A stretch of DNA of 60,078 nucleotides, the filler included, from Dirinaria sp. TL-2023a (lineage: Eukaryota), in assembly GCA_051941275.1 (NCBI GenBank). It is 12 parts of 12 records of this genome, joined end to end, with 100 filler letters (N's around TTAATTAATTAA, not from the genome) between each part and the next. Parts side by side here need not be neighbours in the genome. Positions count along the whole stretch, not along the records: positions 35,266 to 40,163 come from JAVEBF010001757.1; 11 more parts are not named here. One strand, written 5' to 3'. The notes under the pieces are model-generated. The model was not told the DNA's origin. It saw only the letters and a list, made by a program, of their open reading frames with translations, and made no database searches. The translations under genes and the position numbers were made by a program. Below, piece by piece: positions 4,957 to 55,216 of the stretch (positions within the stretch are counted from its first letter, which is position 1; each line of letters begins with the position of its first letter).

Positions 4957-5056
4957 NNNNNNNNNNNNNNNNNNNNNNNNNNNNNNNNNNNNNNNNNNNN
5001 TTAATTAATTAANNNNNNNNNNNNNNNNNNNNNNNNNNNNNNNNNNNNNNNNNNNN
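4957..5056. other. Artificial contig linker
   Basis: N44-TTAATTAATTAA-N44 (stops in all six frames). Confidence 0.99.
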
Positions 5057-10009: not shown

Positions 10010-10109
10010 NNNNNNNNNNNNNNNNNNNNNNNNNNNNNNNNNNNNNNNNNNNNTTAATTAATTAANNNNNNNNNNNNNNNNNNNNNNNNNNNNNNNNNNN
10101 NNNNNNNNN
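10010..10109. other. Artificial contig linker
   Basis: N44-TTAATTAATTAA-N44. Confidence 0.99.
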
Positions 10110-15053: not shown

Positions 15054-15153
15054 NNNNNNNNNNNNNNNNNNNNNNNNNNNNNNNNNNNNNNNNNNNNTTA
15101 ATTAATTAANNNNNNNNNNNNNNNNNNNNNNNNNNNNNNNNNNNNNNNNNNNN
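15054..15153. other. Artificial contig linker
   Basis: N44-TTAATTAATTAA-N44. Confidence 0.99.
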
Positions 15154-20093: not shown

Positions 20094-20193
20094 NNNNNNN
20101 NNNNNNNNNNNNNNNNNNNNNNNNNNNNNNNNNNNNNTTAATTAATTAANNNNNNNNNNNNNNNNNNNNNNNNNNNNNNNNNNNNNNNNNNNN
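20094..20193. other. Artificial contig linker
   Basis: N44-TTAATTAATTAA-N44. Confidence 0.99.
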
Positions 20194-21496: not shown

Positions 21497-24400
21497 TCAT
21501 CGCGCCCATATTGCTACTAGGCTATCAAAATCAAAATCGTTGAGATCTTTCGTCGTGTCGCGAAGCGGAGCGATCGTTGTGAGAAGGATGCCTACTTCGG
21601 AGAGAAGAGTATTGCTCGCTGAAATGTTTTGCAGCTGCTTCTGGAATAACGCTGCTTTATACAGTGCGCGGCAATACTCCCCTCGGTACGCGTATCGATT
21701 CCGGAACGTCTTGAGCGCTTGTTCAAAGAGGATACTAGCACGACTTGAGTCTCTTTCTGAACATGGAAGGGCCCTAGCTTTACTCACTTTGCCGCTTCTA
21801 ACTCGTTTCGCCGCGCATGATGTTCTGCCATTTTAAGACACGCATTCCCAGTTCGGTGATAATCTTTACCCATCGTCGACATGAGAATTTGGAGCGCCCG
21901 TTGATGAGCTTCAAAACTTTCATCAAGCAAATTAAGTTTTGCTTTTACATTGCCAAGCGCGTAAAGAGCATAACCGGGTCCGTAGGCAATTAGTAAGGGT
22001 GAATCGGCCATTGACGCCTGGTACTTACTTAAATGAGTTAGGTTCTAGCCCATACTTTTTGTTTCCCCAGTCAACTGTTTCGGATAGCAATTCCACAGCA
22101 TGTTGCTCTTCTCCTATTGCGGACAGTGAAAAGGCTAGACAAATAGTTCCAAAGTAAGGCCAATAGTCCCCATCAAGGAATTCCTGGTCTTCAAAAGCGA
22201 TGCCCCTAGAGATCTTGCAATTTTCAATTGCCTGTTCGTAATACCCAGTCAGCATTTGAGCAAGTGCGAGCTCGCTGTATGCCAGCGCTCCATATAAGGA
22301 CAGCTTTGGAAGCGTCTTTTCGATTTGCATTCGCTGAACGAAATGTCTTTCAGCGAAATGGATTGCGCGGTCTCCGTCATTTTGTTCGCTGAGTGTAGAT
22401 GCCATGCAGAAGAGTACATCTGCATGGAGCTCTCCCACGGCTTCTGAATGCTGCTCACAGATCTTGAGAGCAGTTTCAAATATTGCTAACGCCTCGTCAA
22501 AGTTTCCACGCTCTTGTAGATACCATCCACCTTGCTGCAGCAAGCCGGAGAACTTTTTAATCGTCTCAGGCATGAGAGTCATATCATGCTGACTATCGAA
22601 TACAGCTTGGAGCTTAACAATGTGTGGCTGTAGTTTTTCGAAGTTCGCAAATAGCTCTGGGTTGTGGTTATAACGATCCTCAGGGTAAGGCCAAGCACAG
22701 GAAAGAATTTGAGTCGCGAGCTCGAATATCTCCTGCAGTCTGTCGTGCTTGAAGCTCAATACAGCAGCATCTTGCACTAACCTATGAATCGAGATCTGTC
22801 CTAATTCCTTGTTGCGCTTAAGTAACGAAGATTTCATTAGGTCTGTACGTGCTTCAATATAAACAGCTTGGCTCGAAAAGAAGGCCACGTGGTCTACATT
22901 TGATATCGCCTGTGTTAGTATACTCTCGTCAAGCTCGTCAGGATCGAGCAGAGCGAGGAGATCGAGCATGTTGTGTGCATCAGAGCCTAGATCGCCAAAG
23001 GCCCACACAGAGGAGAGATCGTGGCCGTACTTGTCATTTTGTCGCGTCAGCGTCGGCTTGTAAAGATCAGTGATGGCGGTGTTCTTATATGTTTCTCGAA
23101 ATTCATGGATTGTCATGTCTCGGCGACGAGTAATTGCAGCTACTTGACTTATCGCAAGAGGAAGGCCTTGAACTCGAGTTGCTAGTGCCAACGCATCTGG
23201 GTCTAAATCACTGATCGCTGCTTGGCCGGTTAATTTCTGTAGGAGTAATGCTGCATCATTAATGGGAAGACCTTGAAGATCAATTGATCTTGTAGCATTC
23301 AAGTAGCTTCTCGTAACAGGATCTCTACTTGTGGCCAGGACACACCCTCTACCGGGGATCGGCCAGTAGTCTCGAAGTAGTTGGGGGTCATCGGCGTTGT
23401 CAAAAACAAGCAGCCACCTCACATCTGGAGAATCTGACATTTCTTCCTCTTCGGACGTAGCATTTGCAGTCTTTCCAGGGTGGGAGAGCCACTCCATGAC
23501 AAGATTGCGAGTGACAACACGGTCTGCGGTATCATTTTTGTCAACAAGCGCTAGCCGAAGGGCGATCTGATGAAAGCGCTCAGCAAGCTTGCCAGCCTCG
23601 TCAGCATTCACCCAAAAGATAGCATCAAAGTGCTGCCGACGAGTAAAAGCGTATTCGATGGTGATTTGTGTCTTTCCCACGCCTCCAAGGCCACTTATGA
23701 CACAGGAATTCAAGAGCTGCGAATCCCCAGGTGAAGATGTAACTGATGAGAAATATGTTTGATCGAGTATGGCGAATAGGTTCTCATGTCCAACAAATTC
23801 AGGGTTTCGGGTATGTGGGTCAAGGAGATAGCATGGGAAAACGGGCTTTTCTTTTACTTTCGCGCTCTCCGATACGCTGGATATTATCTCGAAGCTCGTG
23901 TGGGACAGATCTGTTGAGCCTTTGGTAGCGTTCAGCATACTCAAGTCGGAGATTCGCCGAACGCTGCTTTCTTCATGGTCTGGGTCACACACCGTACTGG
24001 CCCACGCGACCTCCGTGATGGCTTTGGTCGGCGGTGCACTCAAGGAGTCAAATGTTCTCTGTATGCGGTCTTGTTGGGCTACCGCGTTGTCCATCATAAT
24101 TTTGAGTTCAGCGATTCCCATCGGATTGGACCGTAAATCGCAAACTGTGCTATGTTCTGCATCAGCTGGAAGAAGCGTTTCATTCTTCAAATTGGTTTCG
24201 GCAAAATCACGGTCAACTAATAGGTCTCTGCGAGAGGCTCTAAATAGACCGTCACTGATTTTTGTCCTCTTAGTTTCGTAGATGGACGCGATCAGAACAT
24301 CAATACCAAGCTCCTCGAACTTCGCAGAGATGTTAGCGATCGTTGCAGCTTCCGTCTCCGCTTGAGCAAGTAGCAACGGCTTCAGCGCCACACTCGACCG

Positions 24401-24916
24401 AAGTAGCAGGCTAAGCCGTATCCACTTCGATCTTTGCTTATATGTAGCGTGTGGCGTCCCTAAGAACATAATGCCTACTTGCACGCTGATCAACTTCCGC
24501 ACCCTGGGATCATAGTATTGCTCGTGCGAACTGTTAAAAACGCACTTCACGACTACTCCACCGTATCCGTGACAGATAAACAGCAGAGGCCGTTGAGCCA
24601 GCAGTAGATTGTCGCTCTTTTCTACCAGGGCTCCCATCAGATCCGCGCTACGTTGCATTATTGATTGCCATATGGAAACACCGGCGGCCGGCAACGTCAT
24701 GTCGAAAGCCAAAAGCTGCGCACCAGGTGCGATGGAGGGTACGGTGATCTTAAGCCACCGCCAGACATTGGGGAGGTGTTCTGGTGACAACTTCGCCCCT
24801 AGCTCTGGAACAATTATGACGTTGATGGTGCATCGCTTTGGAGGCTGGCTTTGAAGCACGGTGATCCTGTCACTGCGAGCTGTCTGGGCCGGATTCACTG
24901 CAGTCGTTGGAAGCAT
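21497..24916 (-). CDS. Fungal NLR-like protein: SesB-like alpha/beta-hydrolase + NB-ARC + TPR
   Basis: RPLLFICHGYGGVVVK and GIMFLGTPH (SesB-like); RNPEFVG, GLGGVGKT (Walker A), WLLVFDNADD (Walker B), GLPLAI, IHRLVQ; TPR helices; C-terminal FDSLVAIWAR. Two 3' introns, the first with an abnormal acceptor. Confidence 0.9.
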
Positions 24917-25129
24917 TTGAGCAGTGATAAGTGGTAAGTGGTAAGTCAGAAGCAATTGAGTCGCGCTAGGCCAATAATACGCTTATACCCTCCGCCCGAT
25001 GCTGAAAGATTGTGTGTAGAAAAAGAGTATGCTCGCAAGAATCTCTCGACTCTCGACTCTCACTCTGCTTACGAGCCGCCTCGTGTCCAGTAGATCAACA
25101 ATGAATTGGCTAGCGGCGCTGCATCGGAA

Positions 25130-25229
25130 NNNNNNNNNNNNNNNNNNNNNNNNNNNNNNNNNNNNNNNNNNNNTTAATTAATTAANNNNNNNNNNNNNNN
25201 NNNNNNNNNNNNNNNNNNNNNNNNNNNNN
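25130..25229. other. Artificial contig linker
   Basis: N44-TTAATTAATTAA-N44. Confidence 0.99.
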
Positions 25230-30157: not shown

Positions 30158-30257
30158 NNNNNNNNNNNNNNNNNNNNNNNNNNNNNNNNNNNNNNNNNNN
30201 NTTAATTAATTAANNNNNNNNNNNNNNNNNNNNNNNNNNNNNNNNNNNNNNNNNNNN
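30158..30257. other. Artificial contig linker
   Basis: N44-TTAATTAATTAA-N44. Confidence 0.99.
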
Positions 30258-30716: not shown

Positions 30717-33105
30717 TCAAACAGGATTCTTGTCTAATCTCCTATTCGCTGGGCCCATGACGAGGCGTTCTCTCTTCTCACGCGCTTTCCTTTCCGACAT
30801 CGCTTTGTCATGCATGTATCGCAGCAGGGCAACGAGTACACAGAATGTTGCAATCGAAACAAATATGCTTGCGAAAAATTGCCAGAAGCGCCGCTGATCC
30901 AACTCGGATTCACGAATATCGATCAGGTTCATACCCCAGTAGCCAGTCAGCGATGAGAATGGCACGAACACGATCGAGACGGTGGTGATCAAGAAAAGTG
31001 CTCCATTTTGTCTGTCGGTCACGATTCCATGCTGCCGCTGCTGTATCGAACGTAGATCGTAGACCTATTCAGGACCATCGTCAACAATGCACTTCTTTGA
31101 TGGTGTGGAAACTCGAGAAGTTAGTTATTCATACCGAGTCCAAAGTCATGCTGATATCCTCGAATAGTACGTCATAAGCCTTGCTTTGCCGCTGGCTCCG
31201 GGAAAGAGCAGTCTGCACTTTTTCCAAAGCAGACACTTCACCCTCATGCTCTGGTAGCCGTCCCTGCTCCAGATCTTCCTTCTCAATCCGTTCGACGTCC
31301 TTTTTAAGAGTTTCGAAAACATGTTCGCGATGCTTACTCACAACCGTTATTCGTCTTAGCTCATCCTTGCAGATTAGCATATCTTGGATAAGGTCCGCGG
31401 GCTCATATCGGTCTCTGCGGTTGAAGTGATCGTCCCGGCGATGTATCTGCATTGAAGCAACAAGCATCAAGTTAGTAAACCAGATTGATGCTGAGAACGG
31501 ATGATTTGACAAACAAATTGTTGGATCACTTCTTGATACGCTGTTTCCAAAGTTGGGGCATTGTAACCCTGCCGGTCAGAGTGCGGAGTGACGCCGATTT
31601 CGGTCATCAGATGAACAACCAGCCATTCGACCGTTACTCGATGCCAATTTCGTGTTCCGCTATTTTTGAAATGGTGCCGAACGAAAGCAATGGCCGAAGC
31701 AACATCGTTGTCAAAGATCGCGTCGCGTGGTTCTTCCAGATGCCTTCGAAGATTACGATCTAGATAAGTTACACCACGAATCGGCGACAGCGTCAGTAGG
31801 AAACCTATTCAAGTGTCAAATTCTATCCTAGAGCTAGCATTCGTTAGACGAGTAGACCGGCCTACCATCGCCACGGTGAAAACATCGGAAGGGATCTCGA
31901 ACCACTTGAGCAGAGCTGAAAAACCTATGCTTGTGCAGCGCTTGCCTGTCAGATTGCCAAAGAGTTGGGTTGAGTCCGTCCAATGGCCCGCAGCCTGATT
32001 TAGCGGCACCTTCTGTAAGCTGCCTAGGCACGTCTGAATTGCACACCGTCCAAAAGTTTGGCAGAGTCTTCCAATCTTCGGCAAGACCTAGATGCGTAGT
32101 TCTCCATCGGAGGTCGTCCAAGATACCTAAACCGTCAGTTTGTGAGCTTGGTTCGAATCCAGCCCAACAGTCTGCATTGAGCTGCTCCGTAAGCTCGCTC
32201 TGGTCATGTAAAAAGTGGTAAACGTCTCTCATTTTCTGGAAGCGGGCACGATCGACAAGGTTCAAAACCTCCAGTTCCACGTAGGGAAAATCTAACCCTG
32301 CAGAATTGTGAAAATGCCTCCCGGCTGGGCCACTGTGTAGAAAAATATCTTCTATGGTTGAGTGGAGAGGGCCTAAGCCCAGTGGTGCGTGAATCCATCT
32401 CACTTGTACATCTTTTGGCTTATTTTCCAGGTGTCTAATTATTTCGGAAAGTCTATATTCTTGCGTGTCTGCGCTATTCTTTTTGAAATCGGTAACGTAA
32501 ACTTTCACTTCGGATCTAGGCGGAAAATGCGCTTTCACCAAACGTTTGAAGTTGCCGGCTTCATGGTGCAGTGGTGCTGAGTGGAGAAATGGAAATATTC
32601 GACGAGCCCATGAATCCGAGTTCGAATATCCTTTATGAAGACGTTCGAGCTCTTCGTCTAGGCTAGGATCAGGCTTTCCGTGTTTCTTAAGTCTCTCTTT
32701 CCTCTCTTCCTCCTTCTTCATATACGCTGCTGCTATGGGAGCAAAGTTTGTCAAAGCGTCCCGCGTATCAACGCTGTGTTGCAATTGCTTGGTCTGTGCG
32801 AATCTATCGGACTGATTAGAGAAAGTACGTGGTGTTTTGGAATCTGTTTCGCTCGCGGCCACTCCAAATCGGGTAGAATGAGAGCTGGATGATTGTCGAT
32901 GCTTGCTGGCTTCGCTAGATCTACGCCTTTCTTCTTGTGCCGCCATTGAGGGCCGATCGGCCCTCTCCGATGCTGCAGGCTCAATCGAGTCATCGCTGTC
33001 GCTTTGGTCGTCGACGATATCTGCCTCGGGAATCATTTCGATTGAGCGCAGTTCTGGATTGTAGCGAGGAGTTTTAAACGCTACATCGCCCCGTTTTGGA
33101 GCCAT
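30717..33105 (-). CDS. Divergent CorA/ZntB-like membrane protein with a long soluble N-terminus
   Basis: 423-aa first exon and three introns. Coiled helices, then two TM segments with LTGYWGMNL (GMN signature). Confidence 0.75.
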
Positions 33106-34440
33106 TTCTAATCGGAATTCTTGTAGTCTTGGTTTTAATACAGATTTCTTATTGAGACTTGGGTTTCAGTATTACATTGATAGGAGCCTTTGCTTGCCGA
33201 TGTTGGTGATTTGGGGTAGACCGTTCAGCAAAGCTAAGAAGACTGGCAAAAACAGCGGCTCGACTTCAAGAACCCTCCATAATGAGTGTGTAGTGCGCAA
33301 AAAAACAGTGTTCGAGAAGACGTGGTATCTGTACGTTCAAGGGAGGCTATATCAAAGTCGACGACAAGGCTGAACGACAAGGCTGAAGGTATCACAGTCC
33401 AGGCACGGGTAACCTCATCCCACACGTTTTGTCGAGGGTGACCGAATGGAGTCAGAGGAGTAGACTCGGGACGTGCCACTAGTCGTCGGCATCCCGCACA
33501 GGCTTGCAACTCCGAGGTCTCAGCCCCCAGACCAACGTCCATCGCTCGAGACTTGTGGTGGCGTATCTGCATTATCCAGCTTGATAGGGACAAGACTGCG
33601 CAGACAAGGTCACGAAGCTGTTCTGACTCGATCAGGCAGCCTCTGCTTGACATACTCATGTCTCGTCGTCTTTGACGCGGCGCCGCTCGGCTGCCAATGC
33701 GGAATTTGAAGAGCGCCCACTTCTTGAAGTCAGCCTGGCATCAGCATCAGCCTCAGCCTCGTCACATCTCGATCTCGGCGGGCCGCTGTTTATCCGAGAC
33801 CATTATCTCCCGAGCCTCCACAGCCTCCACAGCCTCCACAGCCTCTTAGGCTTAGCCAAGCTCTCGGTCCTGTTCGAAAGTCAAAGAGCCAAGTAAGCTC
33901 GTAAGGTATCTACCTTACGGAGACTACCTACCTTACTCTAGGTAATTAACAAGCCTTACTTCTTACTTCTGTGAAGGCGGTACTATCAATAGATCGCCTT
34001 TCCTACCGTCAATGTATATCGAATGCCCAAGGCATGTTTGCCAGAACCCATCTATAGCGAAAATCATGTCACACTAATGCTGTCTACTACTTGAACTCCT
34101 TCTTGACTGTGTATGAAGCTTGGCTAAATCGGACGAGCAATGACATTGAAGATCTACCCTATCGACAACAGAGGCTCTGGATATTCGCTGCACTTGTACA
34201 TAATTCTGTGCACGCTGTCGCTTGTATACGTACTTCCTGGGGCAGAATTGGGATACCATATATAATTCAAGATCGTGATGTGGACTGGGCGGAATGATTT
34301 CTGTGCTTAAGCAATGACTTATAATTTTATCAGCAATGCTATCTTGTCAGAGACTGGGGCTCTTTTTTTTTTTTTTTGGAAACTCTATCGCGGCTCTGAG
34401 ATTAACGGACAAAGGCGCTGTCGTGCTGCGGCTGCCCAGC

Positions 34441-35165
34441 TCATAAAAAAGTATACTTATTATCGTAGACCAACTCTCGCATCTTCCGAGCCCTTTCGTG
34501 TAACTCCTCAGCCTCCATGATCTTCCCCTGTCTGTCAAACGTCATTGCTAGATGTTCGACGCTCTCCAACGTGTCGGGATGCTCGACTCCCAGCATCTTC
34601 TCTCTGCCTTCGAGCGCCCGTCGATACATCTTCTCAGCCGCATCATACTTTTTCTGATCCCCAAAAAAACATGCCAAATTATGAGCGCCGCTTAACGTGT
34701 CGGGATGCTCTACTCCCAGCACCTTCTCTCTGCCTTCTAATACCCGTCGATACATCTTCTCAGCCGCATCAAACTTATCTAGATGCCAAAAAACCCGTCC
34801 CAACCCTTGAACCCTGCTTAATGTCTCGGGATGCTCGACCCCTAGCACCTTCTCGCTGCCTTCGAGCGCCCGTCGATACATCTGCTCAGCCGCATCATAC
34901 TTTCCCTGGTACCGAAACAACCTTGCCAAATTTTGAACGCTGCTTAACGTGTTGGGATGCTCAACTCCCAGCATTTTCTCTCTGCCTTCTAGCGCTCGTC
35001 GATATATCTTCTCCGCCGTCTCGTACTTTCCTTGACGCTCAAGCACCATTGCAAAATGCGTGATGGTATTCAATGTGTCAGGATGCTCGACTCCCAGCAC
35101 CTTTTCCCCGCCTTCTAGCACTCGTCGGAGCACCGTCTCGCACTCCTCCCATCGACCTTGCCTAT
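34441..35165 (-). CDS. C-terminal TPR array (42-aa LGVEHPDTL repeats) of a probable NLR-like protein, 5' truncated
   Basis: Exact 126-bp period (tgctcnacncc at 34580, 34706, 34832, 34958, 35084). Frame is open to the contig edge. Confidence 0.88.
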
Positions 35166-35265
35166 NNNNNNNNNNNNNNNNNNNNNNNNNNNNNNNNNNN
35201 NNNNNNNNNTTAATTAATTAANNNNNNNNNNNNNNNNNNNNNNNNNNNNNNNNNNNNNNNNNNNN
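35166..35265. other. Artificial contig linker
   Basis: N44-TTAATTAATTAA-N44. Confidence 0.99.
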
Positions 35266-35624
35266 CCCAAGCACTTCCCCCGAGACATTCGATTCCACCA
35301 TTATTCTACGGTCGGAAACCCTTACAGCTTCGTCGTTATGTCACACCCAGCAGCACAAGCCTGCTCCTATCGAGCTGAGGCGTCTCTCATACCTCCATTC
35401 CTTCCCATGCACCACGCGACATCGCAGAGGAGAGGAGCTGGGGACGTTCAGAGGCAGTTTCAGCTTGTCGGTCAGCAAGCGGGCACACGAGCTAGCGACA
35501 ATGGTGACGGGGCGTACGTCTCATGGGGAGCTCTGCGCAGCTGGGACGCGCTACAAAGGCAAGTCAGGAAGAAACACTGTCAGACCCTCAAGCTGACAAG
35601 CTCTCATCGTCCCAGGCAACCCCC

Positions 35625-36800
35625 CGCTACGATCCGCCGAGCAAACGAAGAACCTACAGTGAGCCTGCTACAATGGAACTCCGCCGGCAACCACAATGAC
35701 TGCTCGATCACCTGTCAACGGACGGAGGTAGAGGAGACTTGGTGCGGCGGGCAAGGATAAGAGCTTCGAATGCATACACATCGTTGGAGCCTGGGTTGAC
35801 TGGAGAAGAACTACGCTTTGCATTAGGCGCTGGCGTAACCTCGCGCTGCGATCCCCCGAGCAAACAGGGAGCCTACAGTGAGCCTGCTACAATGGACCTT
35901 CGTCAACATCCACAATAATTGCTCAAGCACCTGGCGTTGACCGAGGTAGAGGGGACTGGGTGGGACGGGGAAGGATAAGAGCTTCGAAACCATACACTTC
36001 GTTGGAGGCTGCCTCGCACTGCGATCCGCCGAGCAAAGGAAGAACCTACAGTGAGCCTGCTACAATGGACTCTCGCCAACATCCACAATAACTGCTCAAG
36101 CACCTGCAACCGCGTTGACTGAGGTAGAGGGCCGCGGGGAAGGACAAGAGCTTGGAAAGCATACACTTCCTTGGAGGCTGCCTCGCGCTGCGATCCGCCG
36201 AGCATACGAAGAATCTACAGCGATCCTGCTACAATAGATCTCCGCCAACATCCACAAGGACTGCTAGAGCTAAGTAGAGGGCGGCGGGGAAGGATAAGAT
36301 CTTGGCAAGCATACACTTCGCTGGAGGTTGGGTTGACTGGACACGAACTACGCTTCGCATTGGGTGCTGGGGTTACCTCGCGCTGCGCAAACAGAGCCTA
36401 CAGTGAGCCTGCTACAATGGACCTCCGCCAGCAACCACAATTATTGCTCGAGCCCTCGCGACGGTGTTGATCGAGGTAGAGATGATTCGATGGGACGGAG
36501 AAGAGTGAGAGCTTGGAAGGCATACACTTCGTTGAAGCCTTGGTTAGCTGGACAGAAATCACGCTTGCATTGGGCGCTGGGATTCTTTCGGACTGGAATC
36601 CGCCGAGCAAACGGAGAACCTACAGTGAGCCTGCTACAATGGACCTCTGCCAACCATAATGACTGCCCGAGCTCTTGAGACGACGTTGACTGGGAGACTC
36701 GATGGGACGGCAAAGAATAAGAGCTTGGAAAGCATACACTTCGTGGGAGCCTGGGTTGACTGAAGATGGACTACAACATGGCTTGAGCGCTGGGGTTGCA
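35625..36800 (+). repeat. Six-unit modular tandem repeat (169-222 bp units)
   Basis: Block CCTACAGTGAGCCTGCTACAATGGA at 35653, 35872, 36045, 36214 (variant), 36397 and 36619. Block GAGCTTGGAAAGCATACACTTCG, with variants, at about 35761, 35979, 36148, 36298, 36509 and 36721. Confidence 0.93.
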
Positions 36801-37129
36801 GATGACTTGGAGCTGCGAAGAGACGGACGCCAGGACTGGCTGCGACTGGATGGAGGAAAAGAACGAAGACTGTGGCAGGCCATAAGCAGCAATGGTCCGT
36901 TCGAGCGACTGATGGGCGTAGCACATGTCAATTGCAGTTGGCTGGATGCAAGAAGTCCTGGAGTGTTACATCAATCGGTATGCAGGTTCCTCGAGGAGGG
37001 AGACGGGCACGAGATCCTCAACTGACTGTGTGGTCCTAGGTCCGGCTCGTACCCACAGCTCTTCACACTCCGCGTTTCCTCTCCAACACACTTAGTCCCA
37101 GAACCTCAACTTCCATGCGCAGCTTTGAG

Positions 37130-38050
37130 TTGCAAGATATCTGCGATATCCACCTATCAGTGACATCGACCCACGATCCCAACATACCTATCTACCTCCC
37201 CCTATCTACGTTTCAGCGATATCAACCTGGGCTACCTATCTATCTACCTCCCTGCCATATGGACCTGCCTCTGCACCTCCGATTCCGACCTGCGATATTT
37301 ATCTATCTGCCTGCGATATCCACCTCCCATATCCAACTACCACGATACTGATCTATTCTGTCAACCTCTCCACCTTCCCATCTACTACTGACATCGAACC
37401 GCGATACCGACATACCTGCCTACCTACCCACCTACCTACCTACCTACCAGCCATACCAACCTGCTTGCCTCTGTACCTCCCATCTACCTCCCTATCTACC
37501 CATCTATGTATCGACCAGCGATATCAACATGGGCTACCTATCTACCGATCTACGTGCAATATCGACCTGCTTGCTACTGCACCTCTGATTCCGATCTAGC
37601 ATATCTATCTCCCTAGCTGCCTGCGATATCCACCCCTTCACCTTCACATCTACCAGCGATATCATCCTGGGATTTCCATCTACCCTGTCTGTCTTTGTAT
37701 CTGCGATTCCTGTCTGCGATCCTTATCTACCTAGGTATCTGCGATATCTATCTCCCGTTCCAGCTATCTATCCACGATACTGATCTATCCTGTCTACCAC
37801 TCTCCCTCCTGGTCTACCCGCGATATCAATTTGTCACATGAAACTCTCGTATTCATCTACTTATCCACGATATCGATGATCTATTCTGCCCATCTATCTA
37901 CCTGCGATTCGAACTTGCGATAGCAAACTCCAATATCTATCTGCGATATCGACCCATGCTATCTAACTCCACCCCTTCTCATCTACATACGATATCGAGC
38001 TCCCACATCCACGTTATCGATCTACGCTAACTATCTCTTTATCTGCGACT
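37130..38050 (+). repeat. Degenerate low-complexity minisatellite built from GCGATATC and TATCTAC/TACC motifs
   Basis: More than 15 CGATAT/CGATAC copies at irregular spacing. G-poor top strand. (TACC)n at about 37415-37448. Confidence 0.8.
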
Positions 38051-38574
38051 CGGATCTTTACGACCCTGGAAACTCAAGTAGGAGAATAGATAACCAAGTC
38101 TGATATAATTGATCTTTTGATAACGATCTTATCGGGACTTTAACCAAGGGAAACCTATCTAATTAAGAGCGGATTTCGAAAATTCGAGGACATGAATAAG
38201 TTCTTGATAAATTCGACGAGGGAATAAAAATTACCCTGGGAAAAACAACGTGTAAACTCTTTACTCAAAAAATTTAAGAAATCTATTTTTTTTTAATTCT
38301 TACTCGATTCAACACCCACAAGGGGCCTATGCGAGATCTATATACTTATATCGGCGGCGCGTCAGCGCTGCGTCGACTCTTTCCTTGTTACGTGCAGTTT
38401 TCTCTATCCATAGTACTAGGAAATCCTTCATGCGAGGACTCTATGGGTCTAAGGATTCGAAGAAAGAGCAGTCGTCTGAAACTGACTGAGTAGATCAGTG
38501 GATAAGATCATGCGTATCGCCGCTGTGACATCAGCGACGTTATCGAGCAGCTTTCTCACATCTGTGATGTTATT

Positions 38575-38779
38575 TGTCAGGGCCTGCACAGCGCTCAATG
38601 ACATATGAGTGCTAGTAGACTAGGACACTAACTATGAAGAAGAAAAGGAAAGAAAATCTATCTACAGAAAGACTCAAATAGGGACCCGAAGCAATATCGA
38701 TCCGAGGGGACGCTGGGCCTGATCATGTGACCTGATCATGTGACCTGATCTAAGGTGCTCCAGGTCTAGGTTCATGACA
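38575..38779. mobile_element. Solo-LTR-like element (205 bp)
   Basis: Perfect TGTCA...TGACA termini, internal 13-bp tandem CCTGATCATGTGA and an abrupt composition change at 38779/38780. No matching target-site duplication. An alternative left end is TGTGACA at 38524. Confidence 0.5.
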
Positions 38780-40163
38780 TCTTTCAGTCTTTTCGTTTCT
38801 GAATTCATTCAATTTTGTACTTCTGCAAGTTTTTTCTAGTGAGACTAACGCGATAAGCTCGAGCTTTGTTCTGAGCAGTTTTAATTTGTGAAGCAGAAAC
38901 ATGCTCGACTTGAAGTCGATGAACTTAATTTTTTAATCTCAAAAGTTGTGAATCTCGTTTGATCGCAGTTTTTCTTTCGATTGAAAGACTGTTTGAGAGA
39001 TTCTTCTCGCGAGACTTTGCAAAAAATTGAAAGTAGTCAATATAATCGTGCTAAGTAGATTCATTCAAAAATGTCGATTTTTCATTCACAAACGAGATGT
39101 TCGTCACATAGCTTTGATTATAAACTCGAGTATCGATCTGCGTTATGTGCTGAGATTGTTTAATCTCGATATATCTTTTTACATAATTCTGTCGTCAGCG
39201 AGAGCTGATTCGAAATTGAGTTGTATTTAAAATGACTGATTATTAATCTTCTTGTCGAGATAACGACGTATAGCATGAACTGTAATATTGTCAAAATATC
39301 TCGAGAAATTCAACACGAATTTGACGATACGATCAAATATTTTCTTCGACAGCGACTCTTCTGAGACACTTTGTTGCATAATAGCATTGCGCAATATTAA
39401 TAAATATTTGACAAATTTAGTTCATCGAAAAAAAAATTCGTTGTTGTCGAGAGAGATTTGTAGCTATCAGAAGTTCTTAGATGAATCGATATCTCAGAAT
39501 GTCTTGTCTGCAAAGATTAAAGTCAACAGATACTGAATATCATCATACAGCAACTTGTCGTGTTGACTGATAAATGCGTCATATCTACGAAAATAAAACA
39601 TCGTCAATAAACGCATCAGTGCGAAGAGATGAGAAATAGTACACAATATTTTTCGAATCACGATTGTTTTTCACTCAACGCTGATCAATTCGATAAATCA
39701 TCTTTCATCTCTCTGAAACGCGTATCAGAAAAATTTCAATATTCTGCAAGCGATTAGCGAAGCTTCTCATCTTTTCACGTAGATTTATTTGATATCGAAG
39801 ATCTCTTTTGTTTTTGTTCTTCTGATTGAGAAAAAAGACGTTAATTCTCGTTTCAGTTCAACAAAAGACGACGATTGCGAAGAAAACTTAAGTTTTGTTA
39901 CGCGAATGAATGAATTGCGCATCGTCGATAATTCAGAACGTAATGTTAAACTAAATCAGTTTTTTCTCGTTAAAAAAATGCTTTTATTTTTTTTTTATTC
40001 ACGATTAGATCTTTTTTTATCAATGTATTTCGTGTCCACTGATGAAGACTTGTTTAACTAGAGAGACGTCGTAAACATTCAGAATGTACTCACGTCGTAT
40101 ACTGCACGTCTATCTTTCTCATCGATCAGATTGTCGATGACTCGAGCAAATTCAGCAAAGTAT
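38780..40163 (-). pseudogene. RIP-inactivated DUF3435 tyrosine recombinase (Starship captain family)
   Basis: Manual minus-strand translation across four intron remnants: FIHSRNKT*VFFAIVVFC*TETRINVFF, DLRYQ|NIEIFL, YRIDQR*VKNNRDSKNIV, HDKLLYDDIQYLLTLIFADK, ITVHAIRRYLDKKIN, SQHITQIDTRVYNQSYVTN, YKIE*IQKRKD*K. Reversing C->T/G->A gives FCWTGARIG, GLRY, HAIRR and GQSY. Confidence 0.85.
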
Positions 40164-40263
40164 NNNNNNNNNNNNNNNNNNNNNNNNNNNNNNNNNNNNN
40201 NNNNNNNTTAATTAATTAANNNNNNNNNNNNNNNNNNNNNNNNNNNNNNNNNNNNNNNNNNNN
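40164..40263. other. Artificial contig linker
   Basis: N44-TTAATTAATTAA-N44. Confidence 0.99.
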
Positions 40264-45156: not shown

Positions 45157-45256
45157 NNNNNNNNNNNNNNNNNNNNNNNNNNNNNNNNNNNNNNNNNNNN
45201 TTAATTAATTAANNNNNNNNNNNNNNNNNNNNNNNNNNNNNNNNNNNNNNNNNNNN
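45157..45256. other. Artificial contig linker
   Basis: N44-TTAATTAATTAA-N44. Confidence 0.99.
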
Positions 45257-50140: not shown

Positions 50141-50240
50141 NNNNNNNNNNNNNNNNNNNNNNNNNNNNNNNNNNNNNNNNNNNNTTAATTAATTAANNNN
50201 NNNNNNNNNNNNNNNNNNNNNNNNNNNNNNNNNNNNNNNN
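50141..50240. other. Artificial contig linker
   Basis: N44-TTAATTAATTAA-N44. Confidence 0.99.
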
Positions 50241-55116: not shown

Positions 55117-55216
55117 NNNNNNNNNNNNNNNNNNNNNNNNNNNNNNNNNNNNNNNNNNNNTTAATTAATTAANNNNNNNNNNNNNNNNNNNNNNNNNNNN
55201 NNNNNNNNNNNNNNNN
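55117..55216. other. Artificial contig linker
   Basis: N44-TTAATTAATTAA-N44. Confidence 0.99.

Follow-up and report, generated by a model that had tools for sequence, protein, structure and literature searches.

The subject of this analysis is an array of six repeat units at positions 35620-36800 of a 60,078-nucleotide stretch of the genome assembly GCA_051941275.1 from Dirinaria sp. TL-2023a. We refer to this whole stretch as the window. The six units lie head-to-tail, they are collinear and on one strand, and each of them carries a copy, exact or degenerate, of a 25-mer, CCTACAGTGAGCCTGCTACAATGGA. An earlier reading of the same DNA made without database searches (the sequence-only reading) had described the array as ordered conserved blocks with variable linkers, and had placed it downstream of a Starship-type recombinase gene. 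The description of the array holds up well. The neighborhood does not, and the reason lies in how the window has been put together.

The array and its contig

The window consists of 12 unrelated contigs joined by 11 identical 100-bp artificial spacers, each made of 44 Ns, the sequence TTAATTAATTAA, and another 44 Ns. The first six spacers are found at 4957-5056, 10010-10109, 15054-15153, 20094-20193, 25130-25229, and 30158-30257, and the last five at 35166-35265, 40164-40263, 45157-45256, 50141-50240, and 55117-55216. The sizes of the pieces between them are strictly decreasing: 4956, 4953, 4944, 4940, 4936, 4928, 4908, 4898, 4893, 4884, 4876, and 4862 bp. This pattern marks the window as a set of small unplaced contigs, sorted by size and then stitched together. 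As described in passages of two sources, contig stitching uses a longer N-flanked linker with the same TTAATTAATTAA core, and such a linker gives stop codons in six frames (bioRxiv 10.1101/2023.02.08.527609; PMC2394751).

The true contig of the array is the 4898-bp piece at 35266-40163 (record JAVEBF010001757.1), and it is gene-free by all the tests that we have run. The spacer at 35166-35265 is non-biological, and it parts this contig from the one upstream. Therefore, the sequence upstream of 35166 is not physically linked to the array. Neighborhood arguments across any spacer of the window are void, and the main value of the analysis is a corrective one.

The 25-mer is present in five exact copies starting at 35653, 35872, 36045, 36397, and 36619, while a sixth copy, in unit 4 at 36214-36238, has 4 mismatches. 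The start-to-start spacings of these copies are 219, 173, 169, 183, and 222 bp. The exact positions, together with the degenerate copy of unit 4, bear out the six units, the five spacings, and the near-invariant 25-mer proposed by the sequence-only reading. The number of copies expected by chance is 0: when the window was shuffled 100 times with its dinucleotide composition preserved, no match appeared, even with up to 3 mismatches allowed.

All units are on the plus strand. Unit 1 (35620-35838, 219 bp, E-value 1.4e-69 for the unit profile introduced below) has a 45-nt module at 35794-35838. Unit 2 (35839-36011, 173 bp) is without the module and has a 9-nt segment that occupies alignment columns 120-128; unit 3 (36012-36180, 169 bp) has neither of the two. 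Unit 4 (36181-36375, 195 bp) has the module at 36331-36375 and is without the 9-nt segment. In unit 5 (36376-36586, 211 bp), which has the module at 36542-36585, the block that we call block A is shortened, with 11-12 nt missing. Unit 6 (36587-36800, about 214 bp), the last of the array, has the module at 36754-36798 and is missing the GAGGTAGAGG block. Thus, every block that had been named is found and in the order given, block A is indeed partly lost from unit 5, and the alignment of the units confirms an optional module of ~45 bp that is present in units 1, 4, 5, and 6 and missing from units 2 and 3.

Two blocks stand out for their conservation. One is the 25-bp core box formed by the 25-mer itself, with its first copy at 35653-35677 (plus strand); it is CpG-free, it has the five exact copies, and it is conserved beyond what a uniform rate would lead us to expect. 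The other one, the second block, is of the GATAAGAGCTTGGAAAGCATACACTTCG type and has its first copy at 35756-35783 (plus strand), with the other copies starting at 35974, 36143, 36293, 36504, and 36716. It includes the invariant sub-runs AGAGCTT and CATACAC, and its conservation is less strict than that of the core box.

A MAFFT alignment of the six units has 235 columns with a mean column identity of 74%, and the lengths of the indels among units include 4, 5, 7, and 10 nt. When the array is compared to itself by BLAST, the best E-value is 4e-138. A profile hidden Markov model (HMM) of the unit finds exactly six copies in the 60-kb window (E-values from 1e-54 to 1e-69), and no further match at E < 1 anywhere in it. 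In addition, we find no degenerate extra units in the 220 bp on each side of the array and in the next 220 bp downstream (z <= 1.1 relative to shuffles). The array is bounded, and it has unique sequence on both flanks.

A full-text literature search reports no match to CCTACAGTGAGCCTGCTACAATGGA. Both the 25-mer and a 24-nt piece of the second block have 0 exact matches in bacterial and archaeal genomes, a result that is uninformative about fungi. By eye, a G-quadruplex motif can be found in unit 2 only, and it is not conserved among the units.

The array is non-coding. Between 35560 and 36860, there are 10-16 stops in each of the six frames. In three ungapped blocks of the alignment, the variable sites at the three codon positions number 5/8/6, 4/3/2, and 6/10/6; thus, there is no excess of third-position changes and no codon-position bias, which answers the check on the aligned units that the sequence-only reading had proposed. 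That reading had noticed that frames break and had considered a functional repeat protein unlikely, and with at least 10 stops per frame, no Pfam family, and no genuine relatives among proteins, we agree.

Our preferred explanation, with a probability of roughly 0.6, is that the array is a satellite-like tandem duplication, short and non-coding, which lies in otherwise unique sequence of a gene-free contig, in what looks like the draft assembly of a filamentous fungus, and which unequal exchange has reshaped. The array would have originated by tandem duplication of a unit of ~220 bp, and unequal crossing-over or gene conversion among the units would have remodelled it later. Between pairs of units, identity is lowest at 74.5% and highest, at 88.4%, for the neighbors 2 and 3; the most divergent units are the last two on the 3′ side, 5 and 6. 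The 9-nt segment and the module occur in all four possible combinations: segment without module (unit 2), neither (unit 3), module without segment (unit 4), and both (units 1, 5, and 6). To arrive at all four, units must have recombined or converted one another, or else the indels must have recurred. In the simplest history, a single deletion of the module, followed by duplication of the shortened unit, would have given rise to units 2 and 3. This history of duplication and exchange is inferred, as any binding function would be.

The array has two of the features by which tandem satellites are recognized: its copies are head-to-tail, and its units, at 169-219 bp, exceed the 150 bp above which monomers fall in the satellite class as given in part of PMC9498494. 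Some observations weigh against a satellite-like array of this kind. Six copies are few for what is usually called satellite DNA, a count which is that of the assembly, and short-read assembly can collapse arrays. Moreover, the non-uniform conservation along the unit (p ~0.01) argues against an array that is purely neutral. We take a functionless array as the default, since the evidence of constraint is suggestive only. In kind, the array is an ordinary object; it is its sequence that is unmatched.

Uneven divergence and the 25-bp box

How uneven is the conservation along the unit? The best 25-column interval in the alignment of the six units has 4 differences from the column majority, compared with ~16 expected (p = 0.0096). 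CpG columns change more than the rest, with 1.06 vs. 0.59 differences per column, and both conserved boxes are CpG-free, while the linkers are CpG-rich and indel-prone. CpG decay was considered as the sole cause of the uneven conservation, and we reject it because the signal persists after stratification: the best interval has p = 0.013-0.015 in permutations within strata of CpG status, taken alone or together with the base. For the second block, we observe 11-12 differences per 25 columns, relative to an average of ~16.

When unit 4 is set aside, the longest invariant run in the remaining five is exactly the 25-mer, compared to a permutation mean of 9.1 and a maximum of 24 in 10,000 permutations, where leaving out unit 4 is a post-hoc choice, just as the 25-column length of the interval above was picked after seeing the data. 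In the full set of six, no strictly invariant run exceeds 11 columns, a length that is not significant (p = 0.063). These conservation tests have in common one locus, six sequences, and one MAFFT alignment. Taken together, they are suggestive of a 25-mer that is under constraint, or that may be a conversion hotspot.

It is for this uneven divergence that we keep as a candidate a reading in which the 25-bp box would be a selected binding site for a sequence-specific DNA-binding protein, perhaps along with the second block, while the linkers vary freely. Such an array of binding sites would be comparable to a satellite of the CENP-B-box type or to spacer enhancer repeats. The most economical functional reading would be that the 25-mer is the recognition site of the protein, repeated at a roughly nucleosome-scale spacing. 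In its favor are a conserved box amid variable, indel-rich linkers, the persistence of the box signal after CpG and base stratification, and the spacing of 169-222 bp between units. On the other side, the significance is modest (p ~0.01) and partly post hoc, the box of unit 4 has 4 changes, and there is a single locus. We consider this reading unlikely.

The sequence-only reading had also offered an array of protein-binding sites. The part of that proposal which stands is the uneven divergence (4 vs. ~16 differences for the box), and binding itself is only a candidate reading. It had named as evidence against its interpretation a divergence that is uniform along the unit together with no link to mobile elements. 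The divergence is not uniform, as the interval at the 25-mer indicates (p ~0.01), and the array is not linked to any recombinase gene.

A more specific version of the binding reading, which we find distinctly unlikely, is that the six near-invariant boxes, spaced 169-222 bp apart amid diverging, indel-gaining linkers, would together make a small landing platform, kept up by selection, for a new sequence-specific DNA-binding protein of a filamentous fungus. The array would then be CENP-B-box-like or boundary-element-like, and GC-normal. If true, this would be a platform of a kind not described in Pezizomycotina. And if the 25-mer is a binding site, the array would provide a compact natural substrate for finding the fungal protein that binds to it.

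Satellite monomers with a conserved protein-binding box are well known, the alpha-satellite with its CENP-B box being an example. Such box-bearing satellites are the closest comparison that we can draw; for monomer sizes and for satellites derived from transposable elements, we rely on passages of PMC9498494 and PMC6947457. Like them, the array has head-to-tail monomers of more than 150 bp and nucleosome-scale length, a short box whose conservation far exceeds that of the remaining monomer, and unit-level indels together with exchange between monomers. Unlike them, it has only six copies (~1.2 kb) in the assembly, as opposed to kilobases to megabases. Nothing places the array in a centromere or in heterochromatin, it has no known binding protein, and its sequence shows no relation to any of the described satellites that could be searched.

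Other explanations for the array

Next in order is a transposable element. The array could be the internal or subterminal tandem repeats of an element, non-autonomous or degraded, of which the contig would be a fragment. The contig is small and unplaced, and it ends in assembly breaks; it has two different repeat zones and no genes; and tandem repeats are often of transposable-element origin, according to passages of a review (PMC6947457). But no frame of the contig has a transposase, reverse transcriptase, or recombinase domain, and the six-frame read-throughs (stops as X) do not report any Pfam family at E <= 0.1. Neither terminal nor long inverted repeats flank the array. By BLAST, the contig has no similarity to the other 11 contigs, and none of its parts recurs in the remaining 55 kb. 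Overall, we regard a transposable element as decidedly improbable.

There is no signature of repeat-induced point mutation (RIP) either. Across the array contig, TpA/ApT takes values of 0.56-0.94 and (CpA+TpG)/(ApC+GpT) of 0.89-1.38, which lie inside the range spanned by the other eleven contigs, and an A follows just 1 of the 19 C>T changes. RIP is thus not supported as the cause of the divergence between units or of the AT-rich half of the contig.

The 5′ end of the mouse L1 retrotransposon offers a parallel in which tandem non-coding promoter monomers of ~200 bp each have a conserved factor-binding site. These monomers resemble the array in being tandem, non-coding, of ~200 bp, and box-bearing. 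Unlike mouse L1, the array contig has no retrotransposon open reading frame (ORF) or any Pfam domain, and it comes from another group of organisms.

Ribosomal DNA (rDNA) spacers and subtelomeric regions often end up in small unplaced contigs, and the array contig is both small and unplaced. Could the units have come from such a place, as sub-repeats of the rDNA intergenic spacer or of a subtelomere? Tandem sub-repeats are indeed known in the rDNA spacer of Pezizomycotina, where part of one report describes 23- and 39-nt minisatellites in Colletotrichum lentis (PMC4560493). Like the array, these are tandem repeats that do not code for protein; they come from a filamentous ascomycete, and they vary in copy number and in length. 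As that report presents them, those minisatellites are found between rRNA genes (PMC4560493), whereas the array has far longer units, of 169-219 bp, on a 4.9-kb contig that has no rRNA gene even at E <= 10. Moreover, neither end of the contig has a telomere-type repeat. We hold this origin to be very improbable.

A hypothesis involving small RNAs has been raised for the Colletotrichum lentis minisatellites, in the same part of that report (PMC4560493), and the sequence-only reading had considered for the array a multi-unit non-coding RNA. Conserved blocks with variable linkers would suit a set of repeated RNA genes. Scanned against Rfam at E <= 10, the contig has four matches, none with E below 3.6 and all scoring well under the gathering threshold of their models; the only one that falls within the array is to a long non-coding RNA model (E-value 9.7), which it hits with 15.9 bits where the gathering score is 40. 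The contig also has no tRNA or tmRNA genes. The consensus fold of the six units by RNAalifold is weak, with -11.0 kcal/mol over 235 columns, and the covariation check that had been proposed turns out negative: the covariation term is unfavorable (+1.39), with a compensatory change in just 1 of 26 pairs. And in 12 folds, by unit and strand, none is more stable than dinucleotide shuffles (z from -0.5 to +1.9), where both covariation and fold tests have limited power with six sequences. The array is not a recognizable or stably folding RNA, and a multi-unit non-coding RNA or a small-RNA-producing locus seems to us very unlikely.

Could the array be instead the remains of a gene, for a protein with repeats of ~73 amino acids? 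Three of the five spacings (219, 183, and 222) are multiples of 3, and unit 5 is open in one plus-strand frame and in one minus-strand frame. Against these, we have the way in which the frames are closed. In one plus-strand frame, there is a TAA inside GGATAAGAG in 4 of 6 units, and in the other one a TGA or TAA follows CCACAA, also in 4 of 6 units. The stops recur at the same codon in several units, and therefore both plus-strand frames were closed before the units duplicated. The indels of 4, 5, 7, and 10 nt and the lack of codon-position bias point in the same direction.

Protein comparisons do not rescue a decayed gene. Nine ORFs of the array or its contig have no Pfam family. The plus-strand ORF 36337-36675 (113 amino acids), when compared to 1.84 billion representative proteins, reports one match, P0001, with an E-value of 4.4e-8. 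This is a predicted protein of 824 amino acids composed of about nine near-identical repeats of 89 amino acids, and the match consists of a single 18-residue stretch, 12 of 18 identical, that enters the count eight times over. The region of the query that it covers lacks conservation among the units. We reject P0001 as a homolog: it is a chance 18-residue match whose score is inflated by 8-9 identical repeats of the target, which is itself probably a translated DNA satellite from another genome. The minus-strand ORF 36444-36770 (109 amino acids) has no match among proteins of near length or longer (192-2000 amino acids), and the plus-strand ORF 36123-36467 (115 amino acids, in the other frame) has none among those of near length, the shorter length class having been left out for these minus- and plus-strand ORFs and the longer one for 36123-36467. 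An intact ORF elsewhere with ~73-amino-acid repeats, which the sequence-only reading had named as the sign of a decayed gene, is not found among predicted proteins, the only kind in the collections searched. We regard a decayed gene as largely refuted, and give it scant credence.

Finally, to the array as the cargo or the recombination-site array of a Starship giant transposon we attach practically no weight: the idea rested on the apparent proximity, about 2 kb, to a presumed DUF3435 gene, the sequence in question is another contig on the far side of an artificial spacer, and no search finds DUF3435. The 98 ORFs of at least 110 amino acids in the window (18 evaluated at E <= 0.01 and 80 at E <= 1e-5) do not include any DUF3435, and neither do the six-frame read-throughs of contig 7, the one upstream of the array, at E <= 0.01. 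In its six frames, contig 7 reports only TPR repeats and a fragment of CorA. The upstream ORF at 31837-33165 (minus strand, 443 amino acids) has no Pfam family at E <= 0.01, and at E <= 10 it has three chance-level Pfam matches, none of them to DUF3435. Thus, the Starship context fails on both of its requirements, a captain gene and its linkage to the array, and nothing in the window supports it. What the array shares with Starships (elements with a DUF3435 captain) is the presumed fungal host group only; it differs in having no captain gene, no linkage to one, and no element boundaries seen within a contig that is only 4.9 kb long.

The rest of the contig and of the window

Downstream of the array and on the same contig, there is a second repeat zone at 37141-37950 (plus strand). 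This zone is dense in the motif GCGATATC, which has 13 matches in the whole window, relative to 1.8 expected, with 9 of the 13 in this zone and all 9 on the same strand. The motifs of the zone are often found inside CTGCGATATCCACCT. The zone is C-rich, with a GC skew of -0.46 (C over G), and it includes a (TACC)11 run at 37405-37448. We considered the zone as a decayed relative of the array, and we reject this possibility, as the unit profile gives no detectable match to it.

The 3′ half of the contig (38040-40163) is AT-rich (GC content 0.33-0.45), and none of its ORFs matches Pfam. The shift in composition does not come with RIP-like dinucleotide indices. A perfect 13-bp tandem (CCTGATCATGTGA x2.5) is found at 38718-38750.

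On contig 7, the 443-amino-acid ORF is on the same strand as, and upstream of, a C-terminal fragment of CorA at 30720-31064 (E-value 2.4e-9), and the two may belong to one CorA-like gene, with the ORF as its divergent N-terminal part. Compared with the CorA-like protein of contig 10 (45762-47735), the ORF shows no significant similarity, with a best E-value of 0.13. At the other end of contig 7, a run of 42-amino-acid TPR_10/TPR_12 repeats with a DNA period of 126 bp (34444-35165, minus strand; TPR_12 E = 9e-73) is truncated where the contig stops. This run probably represents the repeat domain at the C-terminus of an NLR-type protein, and the TPR repeats are probably the reason why the assembly broke at the end of that contig.

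The other contigs have ordinary fungal-type genes, such as those for a ribonucleotide reductase small chain, a Vps4-like protein with MIT and AAA domains, and an M1 aminopeptidase. Further fungal-type genes in the window are those for an NB-ARC/TPR protein, a prenylcysteine lyase, and a Myb protein. A 985-amino-acid open frame at 22028-24982 (minus strand) combines NB-ARC, DUF7779, and TPR, as is typical of fungal NLR-type proteins. Contig 4 (15154 onward) starts with at least 15 As, and contig 12 (55217 onward) with at least 15 Gs; these homopolymer starts are probably read or assembly artifacts at contig ends.

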